Shown: positions 21,916 to 53,469 of the stretch, piece by piece
Layout of the letters: the number at the start of each line of letters is the position of its first letter
Numbering within the stretch: the stretch's first letter is position 1
Position numbers and translations under genes: made by a program
Source of the DNA: an uncultured Acidobacteriota bacterium
Lineage (GTDB): Bacteria; Acidobacteriota; Thermoanaerobaculia; Multivoradales; UBA5704
Assembly: GCA_963770895.1 (NCBI GenBank)
Contig: CAVYRF010000001.1
Coordinates: forward strand, 704,481 to 768,480
DNA: 64,000 nt
Direction: 5' to 3'
Notes under the pieces: generated by a model
Databases searched by the model: none
What the model was told of the DNA's origin: nothing
The model's input: the letters and a program-made list of their open reading frames with translations, nothing else

Positions 21916-22103
21916 CGGCCCCCCGCCGGCGGCGTTCACCGGATCAGCAAGGTTTTTGCGCCCGGCGACCGCCCGCAGCGGGCGCATCGCGCGGCATGCG
22001 CCGGCGATTTAGCTTCTTCGCCGCGATTCATCGATCTGCATACTGCGATTCGATAGCGCCCCGCGGCCGCCCCGGTGGTCCGCCGGTCGGCACCTACTAG
22101 GGT

Positions 22104-34100: not shown

Positions 34101-34448
34101 GCGGCCGGCCGCGCCGCCGGCCTGCTGCCAGCCGACCTGGCAACCGACGACGTGGAGCGGCTCTTTGACCTCTTCCGTACGACCTGGCAAGCCTTCCGCC
34201 GCTATCGCCCCGAGCCCTACCCAGGCCGCCTAACCCTCCTGCGTGCCGCCCACCGCCGATCGTCCGCCAACGGCCATCCGCCGACAGAGCCCGCCGCCGC
34301 CTGGGCCGCGCTAGCCCGCCAAGGCGCCGACATCGAAACCCTGGCCGGCGACCACTACTCGATCGTCCGCCCACCCGCCGTCGATCGCCTGGCCCAAGCC
34401 CTCCGCCGCCGTCTGACCGCAACCAGCCGCGGCTCCGGCCCCAAGTGA
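22104..34448 (+). CDS. Non-ribosomal peptide synthetase, 3 modules: N-terminal carrier domain, then C-A-T, C-A-T, C-A-T-TE
   Basis: 4114-aa ORF. The N-terminal carrier motif is LGLDSLAAAEL. Three condensation domains carry His motifs (HHIVADFWSLG, LHHIAADAESV, MHHIVSDGWSLG). Three adenylation domains carry the A3 core motifs YVIYTSGSTGRPKG, YVLYTSGSGGAPKG and YVIYTSGSTGRPKG, plus the A8/A10 motifs (YRTGDLAR, GR.D.QVKIRG, NGK.DR). Three thiolation domains carry FFDLGGHSLLA, FFHLGGHSLLA and FFDLGGHSLLA. The C-terminal thioesterase motif is GGWSLGGAIAYE. Confidence 0.95.
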   Translation: MSDSEHPFAARGAGAAPQDLAPAGDLDGGDGRDAMLRAAGPEERAALALAWLRRQAAATLDRDAAQLPADRSLVALGLDSLAAAELSGAVENILKVPLGVADLLAGASLAELAGDIARNLDEAAAASHAGQAGGTVHAGDDGRQVVVPEPHRAGAPPPAAPSPRTALSWGQRALWLVDRMAPGNPAYILAGAAHVGVGAARGGDLDVARLCQAITALVARHAALRMRCEQGSDGEVVQVVGDQPLFGWLEVDAGVLSEQGLHELVAEEAWRPFDLARGPLLRVALFRGGGRAPLLVLAVHHIVADFWSLGVMIDQLGALYQGRLLAPLAATHGEHARRQAERLAGPEGEALAAWWRAALPPGAPALELPTDRPRPPVQGFRGGARTRWWERELVGELDRLGRRAGATPFMTLLAAYMTLLHRYTGQPELRVGTPASGRGAPDLSGLVGYFVNPLVVRGELAGNPGFEQLLSRVRQAVLAVFAHQDFPFALLAELLGGARDPSRPPVFQAMFVFYSERRAGERGMSGFALGEAGARLDLGGLTLESVRLPRRGAQVDLTLLAADRDDRDQRAEREGARAVSLQFDSVLFDGATAERMLGHLCALAAAAVADPGCGIRDLPLLTAGERQQVAEWNATAVAWPGDLRLHQLFEEQARRTPDAVAVVVDAATDADADADADTGADTAGAGSRRGPAPPAAGRAVASAACWTYRGLDRRADRLARRLRQAGVGPESVVAILAERSAAMVAGLLAILKAGGAYLPLDPDHPAERLRQMLHDSGAGVLLAQRRLLPRLGEPDAPPVVAAAVLVLDDPDRDDSAQDEQDDPATGGAAFGAAALALAPDGRPERAPPPLERAVHPDSLAYVIYTSGSTGRPKGTMNTHRGIVNRLLWMQQQYRLAADDRVLQKTPLSFDVSVWELFWPLATGACLVMARPGGHRDSGYLLAALAAHQITTVHFVPAMLSDLLAALPPRGDASSGAGPWDAAPAGLRRVVASGEALPYGLQQRYYAALAAPLHNLYGPTEAAVDVTHWATDPDADRRLVPIGRPVANTWIRLVDRQGGLVPIGVPGELCIGGVQLARGYLGRPALTAERFVPDPLGDAAGARLYRTGDLARYLPDGAIDYLGRLDHQVKIRGVRIELGEIEAALLRHPAVREAVVTVAAVADHASPAGADPRLAAYLVTRGAAAPPRAGEPAAGEPAAPPAAPAAAPPSDLADDLRRLLRQSLPEAMIPAAFVVLPALPLSANGKVDRRALPAPRWGAAAVAGTPPRTADQEILAGLFAELLGLTVAGDRSGDSSGNGGSRASGDSSDDGESSGNGGSSGNGGSRGSVDSGGSGAAAGGWVAGTQGGEAADARGVAAASGGEQGGGLGIDQSFFDLGGHSLLATRLLARVRQVFAVELPLRQVFEAPTVARLAAAIAAARRGDLAAAPPLVPLPPAARQGPLALSFAQERMWFLDQLEGGGATYNMPGVLRLAGPLQVAALRAGLAEVCRRHEVLRTTFTVRDGAAGPVARVARPAAAPGPPLPLVDLSGLAAGCRQAVASRLAALEARRPFDLVAGPVLRAVLLRLSGGPPAAAQALHLLLLTLHHIAADAESVEVLARELAALYTAGATGRPPDAAALPPLPVQYADFAAWQRAALSGDRRAAEVAFWREQLAGARGAPPVLELPCDRPRGTVSGRRGARRPVVLPAALAGRLAAVARDHRATLFIALLAAFDTLLGRYGGQDDVAVGVPVANRDRAQIQPLIGLFVNTLVLRLDLSGDPTFGELLGRARQTALAAYGHQEMPFEQLVAHLQPRRAAGESPFFQVVLALQPGLAAPAMAGLAVELAPGDTGTAKFDLSLALDVAPDGSLAGTWTWRAGLFDPATIERLSVQLRQLLAAVAAGEPGPAGRLSELPLLGPAERHQLQREWNDVWQPGGGDLLHAAFERRAAQVPDAVAAVEAGHDGLMGRSLTYGELAARAGRLACRLAALGVAPERIVGVSLPPSLDLLVALLGILKAGGAYLALDPAQPRERRAQILAESSALLVVAASPAAPTAPVTAATAAASSSVIAATTAAAAARPSAVEGLMLLGPDGRAAALGAAAGATPRRTPFPPAPDPDPDNAAYVLYTSGSGGAPKGVVVSHRAVVNRLRYQVAADLAPDSRVLQRARLAFDVSVLELFAPLWAGAAVVLIDAARQQDAGYLARVVAAQQVTNFNAPPALLPALLAEDELRRCRALRRVVLGGERVPVDLAHRFATMMAAGPGAAPLLLSRYGPTEATISVTEWHCRPAPAAPAGSAGPLGWPIAGARLHLLDRHGREVPPSAPGELCIGGICLARAYLARPDLTAAAFIPDPFAAPGEEAGSRLYRTGDLARRRAGGELEFLGRIDRQVKIRGFRVELGDVEAALARHPGVRETAVVDRDEPATGGRRLVAYVVPRQADAGGLEPQALRSFVAEHLPPYMLPAAWVLLDCLPLTANGKLDRRALPEPADLSPAADAAEPAALDGASGRRGAAPRTPAEELLAGIWCQLLGVRQVSIGDDFFHLGGHSLLATQLVSRLSATLAVDLPLAKVFEHPTLAAMASAIEQARGLGGAEPTVAGLAGRLTPAHEAGGGAGRGDGARPVPLPLLPRQAGGAAAQLPLSFAQQRLWFLDRLAPGSPAYNMPLAVRLSGDLDIPALAAGVAALVARHETLRTTFHETAGEPWQRIAPPLAAGASSGAGAGAAATSALPVVDLRALVDAGEPDGEPGGGPGLDAGWPGQPDGFAPLPLPRRALAAALDLAAAAARRPFDLARGPLFRPLLLRLTGREHLWLGTMHHIVSDGWSLGVLVRELTAVYAALAAGREPRLPALPVQYADYAAWQRQRLSGDLLAAQIAHWRERLAGLPARLDLPVDRPRPAVETVAGAQRRWRLAGDVAGRLRQLAAASGATPFMVLVAAFQALLGRWSGQQDLAVGTPIAGRNRIEIEGLIGFFVNTLVLRADLSSGPRRLAFDQLLARTREATLAAYAHQELPFERLVEELALPRDLASTPLFQVMFALQNAPAGGLELPGLRLAPVAVGSRTAKFDLTLSLSESAAFAAALAPAPDQAATFAGWLEYKTDLFDGATAERLLDHFAALLERVTADPSAPLADLDLLGAAQRHQLLVEWGHGPALDTAGAAVTLDQYFEASVDRAPDAVALVCEHASLTYGQLDRRANRLAHHLRRLGVGPETPVALCLERSLDMVVAILAIVKAGGAYVPLDPSYPQERLRFIAADALAAARRPVLVTRSGLAGRFVRLLGGGGGEGEGVGTASTPFQLVLVDAHQRRIARARASARRPRAGVPSAGLAYVIYTSGSTGRPKGTMNTHRGILNRVLWMQGAHPLTPGDRVMQKTPMSFDVSVGELFWPLLAGGCLVLARPEGHKDAAYLVRLVCEQAISILHFVPALLDLFLDQPQVAQCRSMRQLVVGGEVLSAELRDRFRARLPHCELHNHYGPTEAAIDVSAWTCRHAGEQAPVPIGRPVANTWLYVLDRDLRPLPAGVPGELLIGGVQLARGYLGRPDLTAERFVPDAWSAGGRLYRTGDLARHRSDGALEYLGRLDHQVKLRGFRIELGEIETVLAGHPAVRQAAVLLVDAPPAGAQLVACVVAQPGAGTGAEAAAIWPELRAFLAARLPDHMVPAAVVWSAALPTTPNGKIDRRVLTQQAADAAAAVRGTALPAAAPPRDAVEAALTAIWSEILGRGTLDRDDNFFDLGGHSLLAVRLMARIRQRFGRELPLQTLFRAATVGQQAALLRAGAATAGRSILVELTPMASTAANAGTSTSAGTPTNAGTSADAGTSVKAGSPAASEPAARPFFCVHPAGGNVLCYAELARSLGADQPFYGLQLPDLRDLPPDATVEALASRYVTALQAVAPNGPYALGGWSLGGAIAYEMAHQLRLAGEQVDLLALIDPSPLSVTHPQSPEPEDPETSAASPATTASAGMPAAEPEDGNHGADAQLAAAFAYDLAALSGHDAAQLAAAHASLHLDPTRPLPDLLAAGRAAGLLPADLATDDVERLFDLFRTTWQAFRRYRPEPYPGRLTLLRAAHRRSSANGHPPTEPAAAWAALARQGADIETLAGDHYSIVRPPAVDRLAQALRRRLTATSRGSGPK
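25970..26105 (+). repeat. In-frame degenerate tandem repeats (about 18-21 bp, agcggcaacggcggaagc-like) encoding a Gly/Ser/Asp-rich linker between A1 and T1 of the NRPS
   Basis: The encoded linker is GDSSGNGGSRASGDSSDDGESSGNGGSSGNGGSRGSVDSGGSG. Repeated agcggcaacggcgg(a/c)agc units are visible. Confidence 0.7.
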
Positions 34449-38271: not shown

Positions 38272-38468
38272 TGCGGGGGGAGTCTACCAGGTAGGGTGGG
38301 AGTCGATTGCGTGCTTTCGAACGGTGCGGCAGGCGGGGACATGGTATCATTTGCGCACATTCGACGGCCAGGTATTTGTCGCCGCCGAGCCGCTGTAGTA
38401 CCTTAGTACCCAATGGCGAAAATGCTGGTGCCTCGGTGGGTCGTGCGACGGGTCAAGGTCACCGCGCA

Positions 38469-39227
38469 ATGAAGACCGTGTCCCGCCTGCTGTCCGTCGC
38501 CGCCTACGGCCTGGTGCGACCGTGGATGCGGCGCCGGGTGGGCCGGACGGTGCTCGAATCGATCGATGGCGTGCCGCTGGTGGTGTTGCCCCAGGTGCTC
38601 AACCCGCGCGTCTTCCGCACCGGCGCCTGGCTGGCGCAGGCGGTGCCGCCGGCTGCCGCGCCGGCGGCCACCCGCCGCGCTCTCGACATGGGCACCGGCT
38701 CGGGCATCGGCGCCATCTTCGCCGCCCGCCGCGGCTATCGCGTGACGGCGCTCGACATCAATCCCCACGCCGTCCGGTGCGCTCGCGTGAACGCCCTGCT
38801 CAACGGCCTGGACCAGCAGATCGACGTGCGGCAGAGCGACCTGTTCGACGCCGTCGCCGGCGAACGCTTCGACCTGGTGCTGTTCAATCCGCCATTTTTC
38901 CCCGGCACGCCGCGCGATCCGCTGGACGCGGCCTGGCGCAGCCACGACGTCATCGAGCGCTTCACCGCCGGCCTGCCCGCGGCGCTGGCGCCGGGAGGGT
39001 CGGCCCTGCTGCTGCTGTCCAGCGCCGGCGGCTCCGACAGCAAGCTCCTGGCCCACGTCCCCGCCCAGCTGCGCGTCGCGCCGGTCTTCCGCCGCGGCTT
39101 TGCCGGCGAAACGATCACGCTCTTTGCCGCCACCTGGGTCCCCGCCGCCAGCGCCAGCGCGGCCCAGGCCGGCGCCGCCCGGCCGCTGGCGGCGCCCGCG
39201 CTGTCCTCCGTGGAGGTGATGCGATGA
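38469..39227 (+). CDS. Class I SAM-dependent methyltransferase (HemK/PrmC-like small-domain family, NPPF motif)
   Basis: 252 aa from an internal Met MKTVS. Motif I is ALDMGTGSGIGAIFAARRG. The motif IV region is DLVLFNPPFFPG. It is the first gene of a five-gene translationally coupled + strand operon. Confidence 0.7.
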   Translation: MKTVSRLLSVAAYGLVRPWMRRRVGRTVLESIDGVPLVVLPQVLNPRVFRTGAWLAQAVPPAAAPAATRRALDMGTGSGIGAIFAARRGYRVTALDINPHAVRCARVNALLNGLDQQIDVRQSDLFDAVAGERFDLVLFNPPFFPGTPRDPLDAAWRSHDVIERFTAGLPAALAPGGSALLLLSSAGGSDSKLLAHVPAQLRVAPVFRRGFAGETITLFAATWVPAASASAAQAGAARPLAAPALSSVEVMR

Positions 39228-40816
39228 GCGCCAGCGTTGCCTCGGCAGGCGTGTCGGGCGCGGCGGCGGGCCGCCAGCGGGTGCTGCTGGTCAATCCGCG
39301 CATGTGCTCGCGCCGCTCGATGCGCCTGCCGCTGTCGCTGCTGTCGCTGGGTTCGGTCCTGGAAGGGCGCTACGACTACCAGCTGATCGACGGCAATGTC
39401 GATCCCGACGCCATCGGCACCGCGCTCGCCGCGCTGGCGCAAGGCGACCATGCAATGGTGGGGGTGAGCGTCATGCCGGGGCCGCAGGTGGGGCCGGCGA
39501 TCGCGCTGTCCACCGCGGTGCGCGCGCACTTCCCGCAGGTGCCGATCGCCTGGGGCGGGTACTTCCCGACCCTCTACCCGGATTCGGCGATCAACGCTTC
39601 GTACGTCGACTACGTGGTGCGCGGCCAGGGCGAAGAAACCCTGCTGGAGCTGCTGGCGCGGCTGCCCGACGCCGGGCCGCCGGCGCCGCCATCCGACTCG
39701 GCTGCCGACGCCGGCGCCCTGGCCGGCCTGGCGGGCCTGACCTTCAAGCACGACGCCGAAGTGCGGCACAACGCCGACCGCCACTTCAAGCCGCCGGACG
39801 ACCTGCCGCCGCTGCCCTACCAGCGCCTGGCCGACGTCACGCCCTACCTGCGCCCGACGTTCATGGGGGCGCGCACCGGCGTGCACCAGGCGGCCCTGGG
39901 CTGCCGCTATCGCTGCAGCTTCTGCGGCGTCGTCACGATGTTCAACGGCGTCACCCGCCTGCAGGGAGCGTCGCGCCTGGCGCAGGCGGTGACGACGCTG
40001 CGCGACAAGTACGGCGCCGACTCGATGCAGTACTACGACAACAATTTCTTCGACCGCGAAGAGAGCAGCGTGCCGCTGCTCGAAGAGCTCGCCCGCCTGC
40101 AATCGCCCTGGTGGTGCTATGCGCGCGCCGACACCATGGCGGGCTTTTCGACCCGCACCTGGGAGCTCATCCGCCAGAGCCGCATGCGCATGGCCTACAT
40201 CGGCGCCGAAGCGGGGAGCGACGCGGCGCTGCGCCAGATGAAAAAGGGGTCGCGCGTCGAAGACACGTTGGAGGTCGCGCGCCTGTGCCGCGCCTACGGC
40301 GTGGTGCCCGAGCTGTCGTTCGTGCTCGGCGGCCCCGACGATCCCGAAGGCGAGGTCGAGCACACCCTGAGCTTCATCAAGCGCATCAAGCAGATCCACC
40401 CCACCTGCGAAGTCGTGCTGTACTTCTACAGCCCGACGCCGCGGCGGGAAGCCGCGTCAGAGGCGACGCGGGCCAGCGGCCTGCGCCTGCCGGTGATGGA
40501 CAACTACGGCCCGGACGGCCCGCCGCTGCCGACGACGCCGCTCGAATGGACCGAGCGCAAGTGGATCGACTACGTGTGCCACCAGGACGCGCCCTGGCTG
40601 TCGCCGCGCCTGCGCCGCCGCGTGCGCGACTTCGCGACCGTGCTCGGCTGCCGTTTCCCGACCGTGCAGGACGCCAAGACCCCGGACTGGGGCAAGGCGA
40701 TCCTGCGCAACCTGTCCCGCTGGCGCTACAGCAGCGGCCTCTACGGCAGCCCCTGGGAGCTGGAGCTGGCCCGGCGCCTGGTGCCCTTGCGCCAGCCGCA
40801 GCGCGAAAGCCTGTGA
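39224..40816 (+). CDS. Cobalamin-binding (class B) radical SAM enzyme
   Basis: The ATG overlaps the previous stop (ATGA). The N-terminal B12-domain-like Rossmann region reads RVLLVNP...VGVSVMPGPQVG...IAWGGYFPTLYPD. The rSAM cluster is CRYRCSFCG. 530 aa. Confidence 0.85.
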   Translation: MSASVASAGVSGAAAGRQRVLLVNPRMCSRRSMRLPLSLLSLGSVLEGRYDYQLIDGNVDPDAIGTALAALAQGDHAMVGVSVMPGPQVGPAIALSTAVRAHFPQVPIAWGGYFPTLYPDSAINASYVDYVVRGQGEETLLELLARLPDAGPPAPPSDSAADAGALAGLAGLTFKHDAEVRHNADRHFKPPDDLPPLPYQRLADVTPYLRPTFMGARTGVHQAALGCRYRCSFCGVVTMFNGVTRLQGASRLAQAVTTLRDKYGADSMQYYDNNFFDREESSVPLLEELARLQSPWWCYARADTMAGFSTRTWELIRQSRMRMAYIGAEAGSDAALRQMKKGSRVEDTLEVARLCRAYGVVPELSFVLGGPDDPEGEVEHTLSFIKRIKQIHPTCEVVLYFYSPTPRREAASEATRASGLRLPVMDNYGPDGPPLPTTPLEWTERKWIDYVCHQDAPWLSPRLRRRVRDFATVLGCRFPTVQDAKTPDWGKAILRNLSRWRYSSGLYGSPWELELARRLVPLRQPQRESL

Positions 40817-42537
40817 CGGACACCCAGCCCGACAGGCTGCCGGCAGCGAAGCTGCCGCTGCGGCACGGCGCCTATGCGTGGCAGACGCGCTGGCGCCCCG
40901 GCGAGCTCGCCACCGCCCGCTTCATGCCCATGGGCCTCCACCTGGAGCTGGTCACCAACAGCCCGCCCCTCCTGGCTGCCGCCCGCCAGTGCTTCGGCGG
41001 CTACGGCGAGCCGGCGCCAGACCGCCCCGTCGATCTCACCCTGAGGCTCTACCAGCACTCCGTCGACGCGCCGGCGCCAGGCGCTGGCGTCGCTACGACC
41101 GCCGCTACGTCCGGCCACCTCGCCACGGCAACGGCCGCCGCCGCCAACCCGGCCGGCACCGCCGGCCTCCCCGACCTGGCCAACACCGCCAACCCCGCCG
41201 ACCAGGGGTTCAACGGGGGCAGCGTCGCGGCGATCCACCCAGTGAGGGCGGCTGCCCTCCCGGAGGCCGGGCCGCCCGGCGCCGCCACGTCCGGCAGCTG
41301 TGTCGCCGCAACCGCCGCCGGCGCCACCCCCGGCTCCGTCGCTGCAACCGCCATCCACGCCTCGACGACCGGCAACGCCGCTGCTGCAACCGCCATCGGC
41401 GCCGCCATGTCTGGCAGCTCTAGCGCAGCAACCGCTGCCGACGCTACGACCGGCAACTCCGCTGCTGCAGCCGCCATCGGCGCCGCCATGTCTGGCAGCT
41501 CTAGCGCAGCAACCGCTGCCGACGCTACGACCGGCAACTCCGCTGCTGCAGCCGCCATCGGCGCCGCCATGTCTGGCAGCTCCGTCGCCGCAACCGCTGC
41601 CGACGCTACGACCGGCAGCTCCAGTGCCGCAACCGCTGCCGACGCTACGACCGGCAGCTCTAGTGCAGCAACCGCTGGCGACGCCACGACCGGCAGCTCC
41701 GTCGCCGCCACCTCACCTGTCGCCGCGATGGCTGGTGCCGCCGCCGGCGGCCGGGACGTGCATTTCTTTGACGGCGGCGCCGCCGGCGCGCCGCTGTCCG
41801 CGCCGATCCTGCGCTGCGAGGGTCCGTATCTCTACCAGGCCAGCGGGTCTGACACGGTGATGGTGGCCGACCGCGGCGCCGGGGTCACCTTCGGCTACCT
41901 GGCCGCAGCGACCGTGGCCGATGCAGCGCACCTCACCTGGCACTACCTGTGGCCGGCGGTTTCCTATCACCTGGAATGCCGCGGTTTTGCCGGAGTGCAC
42001 GCCGCCGCCATCGCGCGGCGAGGCCGCGGGCTGCTGCTGCGCGGCCGCAGCGGCCAGGGCAAGACGACGCTCACCTATGCGGCCACCCGTCGCGGCTGGC
42101 AGGCCGTCAGCGAAGACATCGTATGGGTGGACGCCCGCGGCGCCACCTGGTGGGGCTCGCCCTGGACCTTCCACCTGCTGCCGGACGCCCGCCAGCTCTT
42201 TTCCGAGTTGAGCGGGCGCGGCGTCGCCCTGCAGCCCAACGGCGAAGTCAAAGTGGTGGTCGACATGGAATCCCTCTGGCCCGGCAGCACCCTGCCCAAG
42301 GCCGCGGCCGGCCCGGTGGTCATCCTGGAGCGCCGCCATGGCGGCACCAGCAGCCTGGTCACCCTCGACCCGGCCACAGCGCACCACGAATGGCTGGACG
42401 GCTGCGCCCGCCACGAGCGCCAGGCCCCCGGCTACGACCAGACGGTGGCGGACCTGCTCAGCAGAGGTTGCCACCGCCTCCACCTGGGAGACGACCTGGA
42501 CGGCGCCCTGGACCTGTTGGAGCCGCTCCTGCCATGA
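40813..42537 (+). CDS. HPr-kinase-related Ser/Thr kinase-like P-loop protein with internal Ala/Thr/Ser/Gly-rich tandem-repeat insert
   Basis: The GTG start overlaps the previous stop (GTGA); an alternative start is Met +38. The N-terminal domain reads YAWQTRWRPGELATARFMPMGLHLELV. The 230-aa low-complexity insert is encoded by perfect 81-bp tandem repeats. The C-terminal HprK-like domain carries GAGVTFGYL...HAAAIARRGRGLLLRGRSGQGKTTLTYAA (GxSGxGKT/S P-loop). Confidence 0.7.
   Translation: MTDTQPDRLPAAKLPLRHGAYAWQTRWRPGELATARFMPMGLHLELVTNSPPLLAAARQCFGGYGEPAPDRPVDLTLRLYQHSVDAPAPGAGVATTAATSGHLATATAAAANPAGTAGLPDLANTANPADQGFNGGSVAAIHPVRAAALPEAGPPGAATSGSCVAATAAGATPGSVAATAIHASTTGNAAAATAIGAAMSGSSSAATAADATTGNSAAAAAIGAAMSGSSSAATAADATTGNSAAAAAIGAAMSGSSVAATAADATTGSSSAATAADATTGSSSAATAGDATTGSSVAATSPVAAMAGAAAGGRDVHFFDGGAAGAPLSAPILRCEGPYLYQASGSDTVMVADRGAGVTFGYLAAATVADAAHLTWHYLWPAVSYHLECRGFAGVHAAAIARRGRGLLLRGRSGQGKTTLTYAATRRGWQAVSEDIVWVDARGATWWGSPWTFHLLPDARQLFSELSGRGVALQPNGEVKVVVDMESLWPGSTLPKAAAGPVVILERRHGGTSSLVTLDPATAHHEWLDGCARHERQAPGYDQTVADLLSRGCHRLHLGDDLDGALDLLEPLLP
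41371..41691 (+). repeat. Coding tandem repeats: 3 near-identical 81-bp units plus 2 x 39-bp sub-units (encoding (A)AMSGSSSAATAADATTGNSAAAAAIG repeats)
   Basis: The unit ggcaac(g/t)ccgctgctgca(a/g)ccgccatcggcgccgccatgtctggcagctctagcgcagcaaccgctgccgacgctacgacc is repeated at 41371, 41452 and 41533. Copies 2 and 3 are identical over their first 49 nt and diverge over the rest of the unit. Confidence 0.85.
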
Positions 42538-43721
42538 CGCTCGAAGCAATCGCGGACCAGGAGGCTACACCGCCTGCCGCCGCCGCCGCTGCCGGCGGGT
42601 CGCCTTCCGCCGCCGTCGCCGGTGGCGAGCCGCCACCCGGCGCTGCAGGAGACGCCGGGCGTCTGGCGTGGATGTGCGAGCGGCTGGCCGTTTGGGTGGT
42701 CGCCCCGCCGCCGCAGCCGCCGCCGGCGTGGCCGGCCGCGGCGTGGGAGGACTTTCGTGCCGCCACGCAGGTCCACGGCGTCGGCCCGCTGCTGGGGCGG
42801 CGCCTGGGCGACCGCCAGCCATGGTCGCAGGCGGCAGCCTGGCTTGGCGCCGAGCATGCCGCCAACCGCTTGCGCGTCGAGCGTCTGCACCAGGACTTGC
42901 GCGCGATCCTGGCGCGCTTTGCCGCCGCGGACGTGCCGCTCATGCCGCTCAAGGGCGCGGTGCTGGGGCCGCTCTATTATTCCGACCCCGCGGAGCGGCC
43001 AATGGCCGACCTGGACCTGCTGGTGCGCGCCGAAACGCTGGCGCAGAGCGCCCAGCTGCTGGTCGACATCGGCTATGAGGTGGTCTTTGAAGGCCGCAAA
43101 CACGTCAAGCTGGCGCCGCGCGGCGGCCGTCGCCGCCCGGTCAGCGACGCCGGCGGCGCCAGCGACGGCGACGTTGGCGCCGACGCCGGTGGTAGCCCCG
43201 GCCCCGGCCCCGGCGACCACGAGGCGGCCGGCGAGCACCCCGACAACCCGCGCTGGGTCGAGCTGCATCCGGCCTGCGGCGAATGGCTGGGGGACGAGCG
43301 CATCGATCTGACCGGCCCGATCTGGGCCGGCGCCCGCCGGCAGCCGCTGCTGGGCGAGCCGGCCTGGCTGCCCGACCCGGCGACCCATTGGCTCTACCTG
43401 TTGGTGCATGCCACCCACCACATCCTGATCAATCGCTTCCGTCTCATCCAGCTGCTCGACCTGCTGCTGCTTTGCCCGACGGACCTGTTGGGCGCCGCCC
43501 TCCAGGTCGAGCCGCCCGCCGCCGCGGCCGCCATGGCGCGCGCCCTGTACCCGCCTCTCGCGCTCCTCCAACGGTACTTCCCGGCGGGCGCCACCGCCGC
43601 CGCGACGGCCCTGCGCCAGGACTTGCGCGCGCGGCTGGCGCCCGGCTACGCGGCCTGGGCCGACGGCCTGGACCTGTTCCAGGCTTGCTATCTCGACGCC
43701 GCGCCGTGGAGGGCGCCATGA
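42534..43721 (+). CDS. Nucleotidyltransferase-family protein (pfam14907/NTP_transf_5-like)
   Basis: The ATG overlaps the previous stop (ATGA). 395 aa. The motif PLMPLKGAVLGPLYYSDPAERPMADLDLLV fits the G[SG]...D.D nucleotidyltransferase fold. The C-terminal region reads HWLYLLVHATHHILINRFRLIQLLDLLLL. Confidence 0.7.
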   Translation: MTLEAIADQEATPPAAAAAAGGSPSAAVAGGEPPPGAAGDAGRLAWMCERLAVWVVAPPPQPPPAWPAAAWEDFRAATQVHGVGPLLGRRLGDRQPWSQAAAWLGAEHAANRLRVERLHQDLRAILARFAAADVPLMPLKGAVLGPLYYSDPAERPMADLDLLVRAETLAQSAQLLVDIGYEVVFEGRKHVKLAPRGGRRRPVSDAGGASDGDVGADAGGSPGPGPGDHEAAGEHPDNPRWVELHPACGEWLGDERIDLTGPIWAGARRQPLLGEPAWLPDPATHWLYLLVHATHHILINRFRLIQLLDLLLLCPTDLLGAALQVEPPAAAAAMARALYPPLALLQRYFPAGATAAATALRQDLRARLAPGYAAWADGLDLFQACYLDAAPWRAP

Positions 43722-45148
43722 GCGAGCCTGGCGCCGTCAGCGAGCCGGGCACCGTCGGCGAGCAGGGTGCCGTCAGCGAGCCGGGCGCCGCCAGCGAGCC
43801 GGGCACCGTCAGCGAGCAGGGCGCCGTCAGCGGGCCGGGCGCGGTCAGAGCGCGGGGCGCCGTCAGTGGGCCGCGCGGCATGAGCGGTCAAGGCGCCATG
43901 AGCGAGCGCCCGGTGGTGGTGGTGGTGGGCGACGCCGTGGCGCCCACCGGCTTCGCGCGCGTGCTGCACAGCATTCTGGGGCGGCTCGCCGACCGTTACG
44001 AGTTCCATCACCTGGGGGTCAACTACGGCGGCCAGCCGCACGAGCACGCCTGGCAGATCTATCCCGCGGACGGCGGCGGCGACCTGCACGGCGTGCGGCG
44101 CGTGCGCGACCTGGTGGAAAAGGTGCGGCCCCGCCTCGTCTTCCTGCTCAACGACCCCTGGCTGATGGGCGGCTACCTCGACGCCTTGGGCGATTGCCGC
44201 GCCGGCATCAAGGTGATCGCCTACGCGCCGGTCGACGCCGGCCCGCTGGAGGCGGAGCTGGTGGCGCCGCTCACCGGCCTGGATCACCTGGTGCTCTATA
44301 CCCGCTACGGCCTGCAGGAAATGGAGGCGTCGGCGGCGCAGCTGCGCCGCCTGCGCCCCGACGCGGCCGCCTTCCCGGCGCTGTCGGTCGTGCCGCACGG
44401 CGTCGATTCGGACCTCTTCCGCCCGCTCGCCGGCCCGCCCACGGCGGCGGCGCCCGGCGACTTTGCCGCCTCCCGCGCCGCGGCGCGCCGCCAGCTGTTC
44501 GTCGACCCGGCGCTGCACGACGCCTGGATCGTCTTGAACGCCAACCGCAACCAGCCGCGCAAGCGCATCGACGCGACGATCAAGGGCTTCGCGCTCTTTG
44601 CGCGCGACAAGCCGCCCAACGTCCGCCTCTACCTGCACATGGGGATGGTCGATTGCGGCTGGAACGTGGTCGCCCTGGCGCGCCGTCACGGCATCGAAGA
44701 CCGGCTCATCCTGACCGCCGAGGAGCACTTCCTGCCGGCGGTCGCCGACGATCTGCTCAACCAGATCTACAACGCCTGCGACGTGGGCATCAACACCTCC
44801 CTGGGCGAGGGCTGGGGCCTGGTCAACCTGGAGCACGCCGCCACCGGCGCCGCCCAGGTGGTGCCCCGCCACAGCGCCTGCGCCGAGATCTGGGACGGCG
44901 CCGCCGAGCTCGTCGAGCCCGTCGCCAGCCTCACCATGGAAGGCCTGCTGACCGAAGGCCGCCTGGTCGGCCCCGAAGGGGTCGCCCGCGCCCTCGATCG
45001 CCTGTACACCGATCCCTCCCACCTGCGCCGGCTGTCCGCCGCCGCCTACCAGGTCGCCACCCGCCCCGAATACCGCTGGGACGACGTCGCCCGCCGCTGG
45101 GACGATCTCTTCCAGCAGATGCTGGCGGCCACCCCCACTGCCGTCTGA
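43718..45148 (+). CDS. GT4-family (GT-B) glycosyltransferase with N-terminal S-E-P-G hexapeptide repeats
   Basis: The ATG overlaps the previous stop (ATGA). The N-terminus MSEPGAVSEPGTVGEQGAVSEPGAASEPGTVSEQGAVSGPGAV is encoded by 18-bp repeats. An alternative start lies at MSERPVVVV. The GT-B donor-binding region is INTSLGEGWGLVNLEHAATGAAQVV (E-x7-E). Confidence 0.75.
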   Translation: MSEPGAVSEPGTVGEQGAVSEPGAASEPGTVSEQGAVSGPGAVRARGAVSGPRGMSGQGAMSERPVVVVVGDAVAPTGFARVLHSILGRLADRYEFHHLGVNYGGQPHEHAWQIYPADGGGDLHGVRRVRDLVEKVRPRLVFLLNDPWLMGGYLDALGDCRAGIKVIAYAPVDAGPLEAELVAPLTGLDHLVLYTRYGLQEMEASAAQLRRLRPDAAAFPALSVVPHGVDSDLFRPLAGPPTAAAPGDFAASRAAARRQLFVDPALHDAWIVLNANRNQPRKRIDATIKGFALFARDKPPNVRLYLHMGMVDCGWNVVALARRHGIEDRLILTAEEHFLPAVADDLLNQIYNACDVGINTSLGEGWGLVNLEHAATGAAQVVPRHSACAEIWDGAAELVEPVASLTMEGLLTEGRLVGPEGVARALDRLYTDPSHLRRLSAAAYQVATRPEYRWDDVARRWDDLFQQMLAATPTAV

Positions 45149-45283
45149 GAAAATCGCCGTTGATCTGACCCGCTACCACCGCCCCAGACCACTAGACGTG
45201 CGATCGGGGGGCGTGGTATCTTCTAAAACAAGCAGACCAATGTCGTCCTTCGATCCTGTTTGGATGGGGGAGAGGAGGTAAGC

Positions 45284-45589
45284 GTGGCGATTACGGTTGT
45301 CAATCAGTCGGTCGGTGCTCTGTCCTATACCGTGTTCGGCGGCTCGACTTCGGGTTCGGGCACGGGCGGGTCGGGCAGCAAGGGTTCGGGAACCACGGGC
45401 TCCGGTACCCACGGCTCGGGCGGCGGCTCGGGTGTCGTGGCTTCGGGCGTCGTCGGTCCGGGTGGCACCGCGTCCGGGATCCAGGTGGGTGCAGGCTCCT
45501 ATACCGTGGTCTTCGGGTGGAAAACCTTCCCCAGCTACACGGTTTCGGCCTCGGGTGTGGTCAAGGTGACGACGACCGTCCAGCCGTAG
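45284..45589 (+). CDS. Small 101-aa Gly/Ser/Thr-rich protein, candidate modification substrate
   Basis: Ideal SD (AGGAGG) 5 nt upstream of GTG. The product is VAITVVNQSVGALSYTVFGGSTSGSGTGGSGSKGSGTTGSGTHGSGGGSGVVASGVVGPGGTASGIQVGAGSYTVVFGWKTFPSYTVSASGVVKVTTTVQP. Beta-strand-like ends flank a GS(T)-rich core. A lower-GC leader lies upstream. The gene is located between two convergent enzyme operons. Confidence 0.5.
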   Translation: MAITVVNQSVGALSYTVFGGSTSGSGTGGSGSKGSGTTGSGTHGSGGGSGVVASGVVGPGGTASGIQVGAGSYTVVFGWKTFPSYTVSASGVVKVTTTVQP

Positions 45590-45621
45590 CGCGTTCCGAA
45601 CGGTTGCCAGCGCGGCGCGGC

Positions 45622-46656
45622 GTGTCCAGACCTTCGCTGTTCGTCGTCTCGCTGCCGCGCTCTCTTTCGACGCTGCTCTACCACGCGATCCGCCAATCGC
45701 TGGCGTTGCGTGAGCCGCAGTGGACGACGGACGGGGAGATCCTCAACGTCCGTCGCTTTGCCTTTCTGGCGGAGGAGGGCGCGGTCGAGGGGGTGCGCTA
45801 CGTCCAGCGCGATCACGACGGGCCGCGCTTCGCGAAGCTCCTGGCCTTCCTCGACCAGGTGACCCAGGCTCAAGGCTTTGCCTACAAAGACGTCATCCAG
45901 CCCTTCGTCGTCGGCGAATGGCTGGCGCGCCAGAGCGCTCCGCCGGTGGGCGTGAACCGGCCCGCTGCAGCGGCCTCCTCCTCAGCCGCTGCCGAAGGCG
46001 CCACCGCCGCTGCGGCCGCCGCCGAGCGGCGCCGCTCGGCGTCATCGCCGAACAGCCCCGCACGCCCCACACCAGCGGCGCCAGCCCCCGCGGCCGTCTC
46101 TGCCTCCAGCGCTGCGGCACCCGCCCCGCGCGTCCTGGTCATCGACCGGCCGGTGCCTGACGTGGCCGCCTCGTTGCTCGATCGCGGCTGGCTGTATCCA
46201 GCGCTGGCCGCCGACGGCGCGGCGGCGCTTCCAGAGGCCGCGCGCGCGGTGGTCGCCGGTGCCCACACCGCCGACCTGTCGGCATTCCTCCCGCCCGACC
46301 AGGTGGAACGGGCGCTGGTGTCCGGCTTGCTGCGCGCCCGCCGGACCCTGGCCCGCCTGGCGGACCCGCCCCCGGCATGCGCCAGCCGGTGGGTGGTCTA
46401 CGACCAGCTGATCCACGACGAAGCGCCCTTGCATCAGGCCTTGCAGGCGCTCTACGGCGAAGACGTCCCGCCGCCCGCCTATCTGGACGACGAGTTCTGT
46501 CGCCAGCGCGATCAGGTGCTGCGCCGCCGCGCCAGCCCGCTCTACCAGCGCCTGCAGGCGCTCAGCGACGAGCTGGCGACCACGATGCTGGCCGCGCCGC
46601 CGGCCGCCGCCATCGGCGCCGGCGTCGCCGCGGCGCCACGGCGCCGCACGCAGTAG
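45622..46656 (+). CDS. Hypothetical protein with weak sulfotransferase-like N-terminal motif
   Basis: Candidate GTG start (VSRPSLFVVSLPRSLSTLLYHAIRQ). SLPRSLSTLL resembles the sulfotransferase 5'-PSB motif (G.P[KR]SGTT) but is degenerate (G to S, G to L). A long Ala/Pro-rich linker follows, and the C-terminal region has normal composition. The listed ORF start (45517) overlaps the preceding small gene and is unlikely to be real. Confidence 0.45.
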   Translation: MSRPSLFVVSLPRSLSTLLYHAIRQSLALREPQWTTDGEILNVRRFAFLAEEGAVEGVRYVQRDHDGPRFAKLLAFLDQVTQAQGFAYKDVIQPFVVGEWLARQSAPPVGVNRPAAAASSSAAAEGATAAAAAAERRRSASSPNSPARPTPAAPAPAAVSASSAAAPAPRVLVIDRPVPDVAASLLDRGWLYPALAADGAAALPEAARAVVAGAHTADLSAFLPPDQVERALVSGLLRARRTLARLADPPPACASRWVVYDQLIHDEAPLHQALQALYGEDVPPPAYLDDEFCRQRDQVLRRRASPLYQRLQALSDELATTMLAAPPAAAIGAGVAAAPRRRTQ

Positions 46657-46659
46657 CCA

Positions 46660-46885
46660 CCTGCAACACGCTCCGCTCACCGCTCGCCTTCACGGCTCGC
46701 GGTTCGCCACCTGCCTCTTGCGGTTCGCCGCTCGCCCTTCACGGCCCGCGGTTCGCCACCCGCCTCTTGCGGTTCGCCGCTCGCCTTCACGGCTCGCGGT
46801 TCGCCACCCGCCGGTTGCGGTTCGCCGTTGCCGCGGCTCGCGGTTCGCCACCCGCCGGCGGCCTTCGACTGGCGGCCTGAGAGGG
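46660..46885. repeat. Intergenic tandem repeat array (about 48-bp units containing ggctcgcggttcgccacc and cttgcggttcgccgctcgcc) between convergent operons
   Basis: caccgctcgccttcacggctcgcggttcgccacctgcctcttgcggttcgccgctcgcccttcacggcccgcggttcgccacccgcctcttgcggttcgccgctcgccttcacggctcgcggttcgccacccgccggttgcggttcgccg.... About four copies are visible. It is followed by a GC-rich palindromic segment. Confidence 0.75.
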
Positions 46886-46895
46886 CGCCGGCGGA

Positions 46896-48320
46896 TCAGG
46901 ACAGGCGTTGTGCCGGGCGCAGGAAGTTGGCGACCTGCTTTTCGATCGGGGCGGCGTAAAAGTCGCGGTCGCAGCGCCAGCGGGCCAGCGCGCGCAGCGG
47001 CCGGCTCCAGGGTCGGCCGGAATCCCAGGCCAGCTGCTGGAAGAATTTGAAGCGCTCGATCAGCCGGTACTTTTCGGGCGACACCCACGGACCGATCGAG
47101 CCCACGAAGTCAAATTCGCTCCATTCGTCCAGCGTGCAGGGGAGGGTGAAGCCGGCGGCCACCGCGTTCTGGGTGATCGAGGTGCCGGGATAGGGTTTGA
47201 AATAGAAAATCGGCGTCTGGAAGTCGGGGCTCATGGCGCGCAGCCGCTTGACCACCTGCAGGGTGGCGCGCACGTTGTCCTCGGTCTCTTCCGGGAAGCC
47301 GACGATGAAGGGGAAGTTGACCGCCACGCCGAACTTGCGACAGCGCTCGGCGACAAAAAAGACCTGCTCCAGCTTGATGTCTTTTTTGATGCGATCCATC
47401 ATTTCCTGCGAGCCCGATTCGACGCCGACCAGCAGGCGGCGCAGCCCCGAGCGCTTGCACTTGGCGAAGACCTCTTCGCTCATGCGCTGGCCCTGGTCGG
47501 CGCGCATGGTGGCGGCCCAGGTGATGGGGAGCTTGCGGCGGATGAGCTCTTCGGCGACCGCTTCGACGCGCTGGGCGTAGGTGAAAAAGGTTTCGTCCTG
47601 GAAGTTCACGTCGTCGTAGCGCGAGCGGTGCCACAGCGCTTCGAGCTCTTCGCCCATGCGCTCGGGCGACAGGCCGGTCCACTTGCGCTGGTAGACGAAC
47701 GGATCGGCGCAAAAGGCGCAGCGGAAAGCGCACCCCTGCGACGAGATGTAATCCAGCTGGCGCTTGCCCTTGAGGCGATAGTACGGTTCGATGTCGATCA
47801 GGCCGTAGTTGTGGACCGCCAGGGTGTTGACGTCGGCCAGCGGGCGGGCCGTGTTCACCTGCGCGGCGCCGTCCTCGCGGTAGGTGCAACCCTGGCAGCC
47901 GGTCAGTGGCCGCCCTTCAGCCAGGCGCTCGACGATCTCGGCAAAGGTGATTTCCCCCTGGCCTTGCACGGTCACGTCGACGCTCGGTTCCGCCAGGCAT
48001 TCGCGGCCGAACATCGACGGGTGCCAGCCGCCCCAGACGACCGGCAGGTCGGCGCGGCTGGCCTTGGCGGCGCGGCTGGCCGCAACCGCGTCGGCGATCG
48101 GCGCCCCGGTGAGCACCGTGACGCCCAGGCAGAGCGCGCCTTCCAGCTCCGCCACCAGGGCGCGGTGTGCCGCTTCGGGGTTTTTGGCCAACCGGGCGTC
48201 CACGACCACCACCTGGTAGCGCTCGGGATCGAGGTGCGATCCGATGGTGAGCAGCGCCAGCGGCATGGTGTAAAAGACCGCGGTCGGGTTGTACAGCACG
48301 ATTTTGTGGCGGCGACTCAT
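46896..48320 (-). CDS. Cobalamin-binding (class B) radical SAM enzyme
   Basis: 474 aa from an internal Met MSRRHKIVLYNP. The B12-like N-domain reads LPVVWGGWHPSMF. The rSAM cluster is CAFRCAFC. The ATG overlaps the upstream stop (ATGA). Confidence 0.85.
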   Translation of the reverse strand: MSRRHKIVLYNPTAVFYTMPLALLTIGSHLDPERYQVVVVDARLAKNPEAAHRALVAELEGALCLGVTVLTGAPIADAVAASRAAKASRADLPVVWGGWHPSMFGRECLAEPSVDVTVQGQGEITFAEIVERLAEGRPLTGCQGCTYREDGAAQVNTARPLADVNTLAVHNYGLIDIEPYYRLKGKRQLDYISSQGCAFRCAFCADPFVYQRKWTGLSPERMGEELEALWHRSRYDDVNFQDETFFTYAQRVEAVAEELIRRKLPITWAATMRADQGQRMSEEVFAKCKRSGLRRLLVGVESGSQEMMDRIKKDIKLEQVFFVAERCRKFGVAVNFPFIVGFPEETEDNVRATLQVVKRLRAMSPDFQTPIFYFKPYPGTSITQNAVAAGFTLPCTLDEWSEFDFVGSIGPWVSPEKYRLIERFKFFQQLAWDSGRPWSRPLRALARWRCDRDFYAAPIEKQVANFLRPAQRLS

Positions 48321-49399
48321 AAGGGCTCCGGGGTCAATGCCAGCGTGCAGACGCATTTGCGACAGATCGCATCGCGGTCGGTGTCCAGGCCGCGGCGCCA
48401 GGCGAGCGCCTGCGGCGAATTGACGATCGCGTCCAGGCTTGCCGCCTGCCGCAGGTTGCCGAGCGGCGGCTGGAAGAAGCACGGCCGCACCGTGCCGTCG
48501 GCTTCGATCACCGTCGACACCCACGGCGCGTTGCAGCGATGCGGCGGAAAATCGCCGTGGCCGCACAGTGCGGCGTAGTAGTCGTAGAGCCGCGCCCGCA
48601 GCTTCGCCGCGCCCTCGACGATGAAGCCGGATGCGAAGTCGGCCGCGTGCTCGCGTTCCAGGGCGTCCAGCTCGCCGGCCAGCCGCGGCAGCTCCTCTTC
48701 GAGCAGCGCCACCTGGCCGGCGCGCGCCGCTTCCCAGGGCTGCGGCCGGTTGAAGGCGTCGCTGCTGACGTCGGCGGCCAGCAGGCTCAACCAGTTCAGG
48801 CCGATCGCGCGGGCCGCCGTGACGGTGCCGCGCAGGTGGGCGAAGTTGGCCCGCTGGACGGTGCAGCGCCCGCCGATCGTCAGCTGAGGCGCGGCTTGGC
48901 GCACCGCCGCCACCCCGTCGGCCAGCTTGGCGAAAGCGCGCGGCAGGTTGCGGATGTGATCGTGCACGGGCTGCGGCCCGTCCAGGCTGACGATCACTTC
49001 GGAGCAGTAGGCGGCGACCTGGGTCGCGTCGCGCCGCAGCAGCAGACCGGTGGACAGCAGGGTGATCGCGATGCCGGCGCGCCGCAGGTGCTCGCACATC
49101 TCCCACAGGTTGCGGTGCAGCAGCGCTTCGCCGCCCGACAGCGCGACCTGGCGCACCCCCATGCGCTGCCATTCGGCAACCCACTGTGCCACCTCGGCCG
49201 CGCCCAGCTCCTGCTTGCCCGGATCGCGCCAGATGTCGCACATCAGGCAGCGGCAGTTGCAGCGGCTGTGCGGGAACAGGATGACGATCGGCAGCCGCTC
49301 GACCGGTTGGGGCCGCGGCAACCCGTCGGCCGCCCCGCCGCTCCACGCGTTGGCCGGCAGCTCGGCGGCCGGCAGCACCGGAAGCACGGTCGAGCTCAC
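48317..49399 (-). CDS. Radical SAM enzyme with C-terminal SPASM/twitch-type auxiliary Fe-S domain
   Basis: GTG start overlapping the upstream stop (GTGA); 360 aa. The N-proximal rSAM cluster reads ILFPHSRCNCRCLMCDIW. The C-terminal Cys-rich region (GDFPPHRCNAPWVSTVIEADGTVRPCFF...CRKCVC) is typical of SPASM domains. Confidence 0.8.
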   Translation of the reverse strand: MSSTVLPVLPAAELPANAWSGGAADGLPRPQPVERLPIVILFPHSRCNCRCLMCDIWRDPGKQELGAAEVAQWVAEWQRMGVRQVALSGGEALLHRNLWEMCEHLRRAGIAITLLSTGLLLRRDATQVAAYCSEVIVSLDGPQPVHDHIRNLPRAFAKLADGVAAVRQAAPQLTIGGRCTVQRANFAHLRGTVTAARAIGLNWLSLLAADVSSDAFNRPQPWEAARAGQVALLEEELPRLAGELDALEREHAADFASGFIVEGAAKLRARLYDYYAALCGHGDFPPHRCNAPWVSTVIEADGTVRPCFFQPPLGNLRQAASLDAIVNSPQALAWRRGLDTDRDAICRKCVCTLALTPEPL

Positions 49400-50385
49400 C
49401 GCCGCTCCAACTCCAGCAGGTAATGGTCGGCCAGCCAGGGCAGCGGCGGCCAGGTTTCGGCACGCCGCTCCCAGCGCCCGAGCAGACGCAGCAGGCGCGG
49501 GTGGCGCGCCGCCCAGCCTTCGGCGTAGGTGGGCGGCAGCAGCGCGCCGACCGCCGCGCGCCGGCGCAGGCGGAAGGCGGGACCGAACAGGCGCCGCAGC
49601 GCGCCGACCGACGGATAGCGGATGGTCAGGCCGCGCCAGCGCGTGCCGCCCGGCCGCAGCCGGCGAAAGGCGCGCCCCGGCTGCGCGTGGCCCAGGTACC
49701 AGGCCCACTCCCACGGCACCAGCGGGCCCATCACGCAAACGACCGCCATGGCGCCCGGCCGCAGGTTTGCCGCCAGCCAGCCCGCCAGCTGCCGCAGGTC
49801 GGCTGGCGCCACGCAGTTGAGGCCGCCGAAGTTGGACAGCACCCCGTCGAACGGCCGCGGCGCCGCCGGTGTGGCGCCGGCAGCAGGTGCGGCAGCGGGT
49901 ACAGGCGCGGTGGCGAGTACAGACGCGACCGCGGGCATAGGCGCAGCGGCGGGTACAGACGCGGGCGCGGGTGCCGGGTCCGCCGGCGGTGATTGCTGGG
50001 GGTGCCAGGGTTGCCGGGGCTGCCGGGTCAGCTGTTCGATGGTCTGGTGGCGCAGATCGACCCGATCGCCCAGGCCGGCGCTCGCGATCTTGTCGCCGGC
50101 GCGTTCCAGCATGCCGGCGGCGGCGTCGATGGCGGTGACGCGCACGCCGCGGCGAGCCAGGTACAGGGCGTCTTCGCCGGTGCCGCAGTTGAGCTCCAGC
50201 ACGTGGCTGCCGGGGGCGAAGCAGGCGTCCAGCCGCCGCCAGACCGCCTGGCGCATCTGCGTGCCGATGGCGCTGCCGGTGAAGCTGGCGTCGTAGGACG
50301 CGGCCATGCGGTCGAACGCGGTGGCACCCGTGGCGTCGCCATCGCGGCGCGCCGGCAGCACGGGGAGGACGGCCGGTTCGGTCAT
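49396..50385 (-). CDS. Class I SAM-dependent methyltransferase
   Basis: Motif I is VLELNCGTGEDALYLARRGVRVTAIDAAAGML. A low-complexity Pro/Ala insert is present. The ATG at 50385 lies 1 codon after the upstream stop. An alternative GTG at 50391 overlaps that stop (GTGA). Confidence 0.75.
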   Translation of the reverse strand: MTEPAVLPVLPARRDGDATGATAFDRMAASYDASFTGSAIGTQMRQAVWRRLDACFAPGSHVLELNCGTGEDALYLARRGVRVTAIDAAAGMLERAGDKIASAGLGDRVDLRHQTIEQLTRQPRQPWHPQQSPPADPAPAPASVPAAAPMPAVASVLATAPVPAAAPAAGATPAAPRPFDGVLSNFGGLNCVAPADLRQLAGWLAANLRPGAMAVVCVMGPLVPWEWAWYLGHAQPGRAFRRLRPGGTRWRGLTIRYPSVGALRRLFGPAFRLRRRAAVGALLPPTYAEGWAARHPRLLRLLGRWERRAETWPPLPWLADHYLLELERR

Positions 50386-50387
50386 CG

Positions 50388-51785: not shown

Positions 51786-51786
51786 A

Positions 51787-53367: not shown

Positions 53368-53469
53368 TCGATCCCCTACTCAAGGCCGCTGGCGATGGCG
53401 AGCGGCGGCAATGCTCAACTTTCGATCGTTGGCGGCGCGCCCGAGCCGACGAACTGATCTCCTAAGACC

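Follow-up and report, generated by a model that had tools for sequence, protein, structure and literature searches.

The DNA analysed here is a stretch of 64,000 nucleotides (hereafter the window) from an uncultured Acidobacteriota bacterium (contig CAVYRF010000001.1). Its forward strand carries a gene for a 574-amino-acid (aa) ScmC-like P-loop protein of the PEPCK/HprK fold, and the reading frame of this gene contains an array of 81-bp and 39-bp tandem repeats, which is the subject of this report. The GTG start codon of the host gene overlaps the stop codon of the B12-binding radical-SAM gene upstream (GTGA). The features of the gene, of the array and of the two adjoining genes are collected in Table 1.

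Table 1. Features of the repeat-bearing gene and its immediate neighbours (coordinates in the window)
Feature	Position	Strand	Basis or remark
B12-binding radical-SAM gene, translationally coupled to the host gene	39224-40816	+	syntenic in L001, L012 and L014
Host gene, 574-aa PEPCK/HprK-fold P-loop protein (ScmC-like)	40813-42537	+	family matches; orthologs are single genes of 296-407 aa
N-terminal β-subdomain, first half, aa 30-82 (strands 33-37, 44-48 and 75-82, helix 51-64)	40900-41058	+	AlphaFold2 pLDDT >90; also in ortholog model
Expanded loop, aa 83-330, Ala/Ser/Thr/Gly-rich, predicted disordered	41059-41802	+	pLDDT ~27-46; composition
Putative ancestral seed unit (TSGHLATATAAAA)	41107-41145	+	common to the insert-less ortholog L001
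Small 27-bp repeat, 2.3 copies	41141-41203	+	older part of the insert
Sequence missing from P0002/L001 (aa 113-308, 196 aa)	41149-41736	+	protein and DNA alignments
Two old degenerate 39-bp units (TSGSCVAATAAGA, TPGSVAATAIHAS; starts 41287, 41326)	41287-41364	+	precede the 81-bp units
Three near-identical 81-bp higher-order units (42+39 nt each)	41365-41607	+	youngest amplification; sub-units 95-100% identical
Three 39-bp units (TTGSSSAATAADA, TTGSSSAATAGDA, TTGSSVAATSPVA; starts 41608, 41647, 41686)	41608-41724	+	74-90% identity
N-terminal subdomain, second half, aa 331-389: four β-strands and helices	41803-41979	+	AlphaFold2 models
P-loop (HprK/PEPCK-like) catalytic domain, aa 390-574	41980-42534	+	family matches, invariant columns
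Walker A GRSGQGKTT, aa 411-419	42043-42069	+	catalytic domain
NTP_transf_5 nucleotidyltransferase gene, overlaps the host-gene stop codon	42534-43721	+	E 8e-31; syntenic in L012 and L014

Tandem repeats were scored with Tandem Repeats Finder (TRF), and the highest-scoring array of the 64-kb window was the one in the host gene (period 81 bp, 4.2 copies, 41365-41701, 89% matches, score 506). It is nested in an array of 39-bp period (10.8 copies at 41283-41712), and the older 39-bp array spans 41287-41724 when dissected manually in unit register. The 81-bp units start at 41365, 41446 and 41527 and are identical to one another at 79, 77 and 75 of 81 positions (93-98%); the longest exact direct repeat measures 112 nt and stands at 41390 and, with an offset of 81 nt, at 41471. 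The 42-nt sub-unit encodes TTGN[A/S]AAA[T/A]AIGAA and the 39-nt sub-unit MSGSS[S/V]AATAADA. A 25-mer taken from the unit occurred 5 times in the window (0-2 mismatches) and was found in none of 100 dinucleotide-preserving shuffles.

The unit lengths of 39, 42 and 81 nt are all multiples of three, and a single open reading frame (ORF) links both conserved halves of the protein; the annotated frame is required because these N and C halves are conserved. Two other forward frames were considered and set aside: the frame ≡0 mod 3 (ORF 40878-41423) meets a TAG in four units, and ORF 41300-41860, though open, lacks a coding-like GC pattern. The sequence-only reading, made before this analysis, had described 81-bp tandem repeats inside an HprK-like kinase gene. 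These are real, in frame and situated where it had placed them, their youngest copies are very similar, and the peptide units are those it had given (TTGNSAAAAAIGAA and MSGSSSAATAADA). Its count stands for the three 81-bp units and not for the two 39-bp sub-units, of which three follow. The inserted stretch, put at about 230 aa, was about right and measures ~248 aa (aa 83-330; Ala 37%, Gly 13%, Ser 12%, Thr 12%).

The host protein was compared with curated family models and with structures of HPr kinase/phosphorylase (HprK/P). Family models matched its P-loop region only, and well under curated cut-offs: HprK_rel_B (TIGR04355) scored 30.8 bits and HprK_rel_A (TIGR04352) 29.2 bits (NCBIfam cut-off 200), ScmC (TIGR04249) scored 20.7 bits (NCBIfam cut-off 125), and Pfam Hpr_kinase_C scored 18.5 bits (cut-off 33.3). 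A precomputed PF27840 match is listed for the window protein (P0001), and for the orthologs P0002, P0014 and P0003 such a match is marked weak. A profile of the orthologs aligned weakly to the HprK/P chains 1ko7 and 1jb1 at the catalytic His, the Walker A motif and the acidic motif, so that H396, GRSGQGKTT and E434-D435 of the host protein stand opposite the His, GDSGxGKS and ADD motifs of HprK/P. All 16 columns that are invariant in a 114-sequence family alignment are retained in the host protein. The catalytic-domain fold of HprK/P is present, and by these alignments the earlier label 'HprK-like' is right as regards fold and motifs. No Pfam match to the Hpr_kinase_N (MurE/F-like) domain was found in the host protein, the N-terminal part of which is a different β-subdomain. 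The curated thresholds exclude the protein from HprK/P, HprK-related A/B and ScmC, and scores of 21-31 bits against cut-offs of 125-200 set its family apart from ScmC and HprK-related A/B.

The structure was modelled with AlphaFold2 from the 114-sequence alignment. Predicted local distance difference test (pLDDT) values exceeded 90 for aa ~30-85 and ~330-574 and were ~27-46 for aa 94-323, and the loop is predicted to be intrinsically disordered. The strands and helix of the first half listed in Table 1 are followed by the insert, by strands 332-336, 339-344, 348-353 and 358-364, by helices and by the P-loop domain. A model of the 331-aa ortholog P0014 (mean pLDDT 92.6, predicted template modelling score (pTM) 0.88) contains matching elements, and at the position of the insert it has a connection of 12 residues between strands 70-76 and 89-93. 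Loop length was counted as the number of residues between anchors L79 and P331 (window protein numbering) across the 114 aligned sequences. The median was 12 residues, 88 of the 114 sequences had at most 13 (11-13), the next-longest loop had 78, and that of the window protein had 251. The insert had been described as a linker between the N-domain and the kinase domain; the models place it instead between strands 75-82 and 332-336 of the N-terminal β-subdomain, where the repeat inflates a short β-β loop from ~12 to ~250 residues. The two halves that flank it would form one sheet, because the connection is short in most family members and the pTM is high.

Relatives were collected in several searches. 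The first returned 18 proteins of 329-407 aa and the window protein itself, which is encoded in a 2.24-Mb NCBI/ENA contig. A profile search gave 157 close family members, nearly all of 296-407 aa, whose hosts, where the source names the organism, are mostly metagenome-assembled genomes (MAGs) of Thermoanaerobaculia and Anaerolineae/Chloroflexota. When 1.84 billion representatives were searched exhaustively with a profile, 8089 superfamily matches were obtained; among the best 150 of these, read by lengths and match coordinates only, the window protein was the only single-domain protein above 400 aa with a match split by an internal insert. Superfamily matches of 495-837 aa look duplicated or fused, likewise by lengths and match coordinates alone. 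A scan of genome contigs returned only one relative (53%), from a Thermoanaerobaculia MAG.

P0002 (376 aa), encoded on JGI contig L001, is the nearest ortholog. Its gene is 95% identical in nucleotide sequence within the domains, and the protein is 198 aa shorter. Besides the long segment given in Table 1 it is without 2 aa at positions 93-94 of the window protein. The DNA flanks match L001 until ~41150 and again from ~41738. By these protein and DNA alignments the repeat is a lineage-specific expansion. The sequence-only reading had predicted length variation between strains, with which a 95%-identical relative without 198 aa of the stretch agrees, and it had foreseen that absence of the insert from orthologs would mark a strain-specific expansion, which is what the nearest ortholog indicates.

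No second genome with this array was found in the ortholog searches or in the scanned metagenome contigs. The metagenome contigs gave 0 matches to either of two probes, an exact 25-mer from the unit and a 30-mer from the shared flank; the flank probe missed even L001, so the scanned collection would be without relevant samples and the negative says little. Mis-assembly of repetitive reads could have made the array or distorted its copy number, since an exact repeat of 112 nt is long enough to confuse short-read assemblers, and the array was found in no other independent assembly. We regard such an artefact as very unlikely. The copies differ from one another in a graded series from seed through degenerate to young units, the reading frame is kept over the total length, both flanking domain halves are intact and the source contig is 2.24 Mb long; similar in-frame arrays also occur across the window and in the orthologous loci of other assemblies.

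The units themselves record how the array was built. The seed unit is 79% identical to the first array unit (41287), compared with a maximum of 74% for shuffled units (2000 pairs), and 67-74% identical to the other array units. Within the old array, identity between units is 62-90%, and the sub-units of the 81-nt repeat are far closer (Table 1). In the third 81-nt copy, four clustered differences match the variant TCCGTCGCC of other units, which suggests recombination among units rather than point mutation. The 81-nt copies differ from one another at 2-6 of 81 sites, and the number of synonymous substitutions per synonymous site (dS) between the window and L001 is 0.055 for the upstream gene and 0.13 for the host gene; the last amplification would therefore be about as young as the split of the two strains, or younger. 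Of the earlier claim of a recent slipped-strand expansion, the recency is supported by these differences, and slippage is the mechanism that we infer. Tandem arrays of this kind are generally explained by slippage or unequal recombination. DNA secondary structure as a driver was tried and rejected, the array folded as single-stranded DNA having z = -1.1 relative to shuffles.

The same comparison bears on the direction of change. If a long ancestral loop had been kept in the window and lost in L001 and the others by recombination between repeats, the 81-bp copies would not be expected to be less diverged than the synonymous sites of the two strains, as they are. Such a loss would accord with the facts that tandem arrays contract as easily as they expand, that GCCGCCGCCG motifs occur near both boundaries of the insert and that its left 140 nt are not obviously repetitive. 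It is nevertheless very unlikely, as none of the 113 other aligned members has a loop above 78 aa, the loop sequences are unrelated, and the junction in L001 is not a clean product of repeat-to-repeat deletion.

Expansions of this loop were also found in relatives. The ortholog P0003 of locus L014 carries an unrelated 42-bp repeat in the same loop (2.6 copies, 95% matches, L014 10301-10409), which encodes GAAGAGEDGAAGGN. Proteins P0005 and P0007 are ~99% identical outside a gap and differ there by one 9-aa unit (PGPGAAAAG) in that loop. Elsewhere in the clade the loops have 20-78 residues and are rich in Gly/Ala/Asp/Glu/Pro, with few Ser/Thr. By these alignments the loop is a recurrent expansion site, in which other lineages have expanded independently with unrelated units. 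In the window as a whole, ~13 tandem arrays reached a TRF score of at least 80, and in 11 of them the period is divisible by three; the syntenic loci L012 and L014 hold 2 and ~5 arrays per 21 kb, respectively.

The explanation that we favour, and consider likely, is an in-frame minisatellite (an intragenic variable number tandem repeat, VNTR) that grew by slippage or recombination in a permissive surface loop and is tolerated there, most probably as a near-neutral change. A 39-nt unit resembling sequence of the ancestral loop would have been multiplied into an array within a structurally permissive surface loop, with replication slippage or unequal recombination as the most likely process. Two adjacent diverged units (42+39 nt) would then have become an 81-nt higher-order unit and been amplified threefold very recently. 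The outcome would be a disordered Ala/Ser/Thr/Gly-rich loop of ~250 residues between two β-strands of a cytoplasmic enzyme, with the core untouched. The array may be seen as an extreme case of a general accumulation of in-frame tandem repeats in this high-GC genome and its relatives. The analysis establishes the anatomy of the repeat, its absence from the nearest ortholog, the distribution of loop lengths in the family, the predicted disorder, the intact motifs with ω≈0.2 in the domains and the independent expansions of this loop. The slippage mechanism, the gain here rather than a loss in the relatives, and the neutrality are the parts of this account that we infer.

Several observations weigh against the account. 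The array is carried by one assembly only, and its exact copy number rests on that assembly. Whether the older, non-repetitive 140 nt were gained here or lost in L001 is decided by parsimony only. That several lineages have expanded the same loop could mean that greater length was selected for, and not just tolerated. The composition of the array is also odd. Among its Ala codons GCA and GCT together make up 54% (5% in reference genes) and GCG 0% (38% in reference genes), TCT makes up 27% of its Ser codons (1% in reference genes), and the GC content at third codon positions (GC3) is 0.71, where the genome norm is 0.89-0.94. The tetranucleotide CTAG is strongly avoided in the window, with 14 sites against ~154 expected from base composition. 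Three of these 14 sites lie inside the 81/39-bp array. The simplest account of both anomalies would be a founder effect in which one atypical unit was amplified and has not yet equilibrated, and this fits a young age.

The atypical codon usage and the excess of the otherwise avoided CTAG would also be expected if foreign or mobile DNA had been inserted in the loop and then amplified. This is highly improbable, and less probable than any other explanation considered: the units resemble a local seed that is common to L001, a BLAST comparison of the insert with the window and with every fetched locus returned low-complexity noise only, no match was found in the scanned metagenome contigs, and no terminal repeats or mobility genes were seen.

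Selection on the gene was estimated against L001 as the ratio of nonsynonymous to synonymous substitution rates (ω). The folded parts gave ω = 0.20 (334 codons), the upstream radical-SAM gene ω = 0.14, and the aligned linker ω = 0.95 (42 alignable codons). Together with the 16 retained invariant columns, these values suggest a functional enzyme with an unconstrained loop. Since the core is untouched and under purifying selection, the minisatellite would be a tolerated insert, most probably neutral or nearly so, and the loop is most probably without function.

The opposite view is that the insert is a functional, Ser/Thr-rich regulatory loop that tunes the adjacent Ser-kinase-like domain, whether as substrate of (auto)phosphorylation or glycosylation, as pseudo-substrate or as tether, and that selection acts on its length. 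Ser and Thr make up 34% of the array, which is joined to a domain carrying His, P-loop and E-D motifs of the HprK/P type, and this makes self-modification conceivable. In lasso-peptide clusters (paeninodin, pseudomycoidin), related HPr-kinase homologs encoded beside nucleotidyltransferases phosphorylate the C-terminal Ser of the peptide, and the partner nucleotidyltransferases add sugars (hexoses) to the phosphate (PMC8498205). NTP_transf_5 and GT4 glycosyltransferase genes lie directly downstream of the host gene, and expansion at this loop has occurred repeatedly in different lineages. Even so, we consider a regulatory role improbable. The expanded loops of the orthologs are poor in Ser/Thr, so no acceptor character is conserved; most of the family has a 12-residue loop; the nearest ortholog works with 198 fewer residues while its domains are under equal purifying selection; and the aligned linker has ω≈0.95. 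No signal peptide was seen by our own reading of the N-terminal sequence (no predictor was run), so that O-glycosylation of the secretory type is unlikely. The proposal that the linker is a phosphorylation or glycosylation target thus finds no support in the Gly/Ala/Asp/Glu/Pro-rich loops of the orthologs or in the ω of the aligned part. It is to the same small degree credible that the β3-β4 loop is a selected, evolvable 'length dial' and not a passive slippage sink. If it were, independent lineages would have grown disordered repeats there again and again because a long tether or pseudo-substrate acts on the kinase-like enzyme, or on how it assembles with its partners (radical-SAM, nucleotidyltransferase and glycosyltransferase proteins) in a pathway that modifies peptides or glycans, and the Ser/Thr-rich version found here would be self-modified.

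A tolerated minisatellite has close parallels. Coding minisatellites of Legionella pneumophila (PMC2639597) and Mycobacterium tuberculosis (PMC12817950), and those treated in two reviews (PMC3899988, PMC10120016), likewise consist of head-to-tail units with lengths in multiples of three and near-identical young copies, and encode low-complexity disordered peptides. They differ in presence or copy number between close relatives; the array here is absent from the 95%-identical ortholog of L001, and its copy number may vary likewise. The array is a further instance of a well-known type of variation. The classic functional VNTRs described there are mostly in surface or secreted proteins, whereas the array here is in a loop of a cytoplasmic enzyme of a biosynthetic cluster; it also differs from them in its 81-nt higher-order unit built of 39/42-nt sub-units and in being without evidence of a phenotypic effect.

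The 574-aa protein should accordingly be annotated as an enzyme with a core of ~330 aa and a disordered, strain-variable insert, and not as a new domain architecture. The array may serve for strain typing and is likely to cause trouble in assembly. It also illustrates that a β-β loop within a globular enzyme can grow from 12 to ~250 residues while purifying selection on the core is kept, and that in-frame repeats arise unusually often in an uncultured high-GC lineage. The conserved and uncharacterised cluster around the gene is arguably more interesting than the repeat.

This cluster occupies 38295-53379 and is syntenic in L012 and L014. Its forward operon consists of a HemK-like methyltransferase gene, the B12-radical-SAM gene, the host gene, NTP_transf_5 and GT4, followed by an ORF of 486 aa. 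The convergent genes encode a B12-radical-SAM protein, a radical-SAM/SPASM protein and two more B12-radical-SAM proteins, and Usp, Nramp and a DtxR/MntR-type repressor are encoded on one side of the cluster. It looks like a peptide- or glycan-modifying pathway. HprK/P belongs to carbon catabolite control, whereas the host protein belongs to a radical-SAM cluster and has a different N-terminal β-subdomain. ScmC (SynChlorMet cassette protein C, TIGR04249/PF27840) and HprK-related A/B share the superfamily of the host protein, to which their weak matches are centred on the P-loop, and all of them occur in association with radical-SAM/SPASM genes. Searching the literature for ScmC/SynChlorMet turned up only unrelated acronyms.

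As in the lasso tailoring pair, the HprK-like gene here adjoins an NTP_transf_5-type gene, and the pair is kept in L012 and L014. No lasso cyclase (Asn-synthase-like), leader protease or PqqD-like RiPP recognition element (RRE) was found among the scanned ORFs of the window, which did not include every small ORF, or in the gene tables of L012 and L014, and therefore only the analogy with the lasso pair holds. In place of lasso genes the cluster of the window has four B12-radical-SAM genes, one radical-SAM/SPASM gene, the HemK-like methyltransferase gene and GT4. No rRNA, tRNA or Rfam matches were found in the window. In L012, a small ORF directly upstream of the methyltransferase gene (7517-7681) has a leader-like N-terminus and a Cys-rich C-terminus (MRKSVKKLVLHRESLRLL...SCETICGLICPQPQRTQDC) and is a candidate precursor peptide; a homolog was neither found in the window (tblastn) nor evident among the ORFs listed upstream of the methyltransferase gene in L014.

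Other tandem repeats lie elsewhere in the window. An 18-bp array (9.3 copies, 43711-43904) that encodes hexapeptides of the SEPGAV type stands at the junction of the NTP_transf_5 and GT4 genes, would add 57 residues to the N-terminus of GT4 and is missing from the L012 and L014 orthologs. The start of GT4 would be either ATG 43718, which gives the 57-aa extension and overlaps the upstream stop codon, or 43880/43899. The sequence GGCGCCATGAGCGAGC is present at both ends of the array (43713 and 43893), which would mean that the array duplicated the start-codon region. A 48-bp repeat (3.8 copies, 90% matches, 46680-46856) is apparently intergenic between the convergent operons, lying between the TAG at 46654-46656 and the end of a minus-strand radical-SAM ORF near 46896. 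A 21-bp array (9.2 copies, 95% matches at period 63, 55577-55769) encodes heptads of the PAAVEPT type in the N-terminal part of the minus-strand ORF 54913-56049. A giant ORF at 22101-34448 (4116 codons, with a coding-like GC3 of 0.92) contains in-frame tandem repeats at 25972-26106 and 33423-33527.

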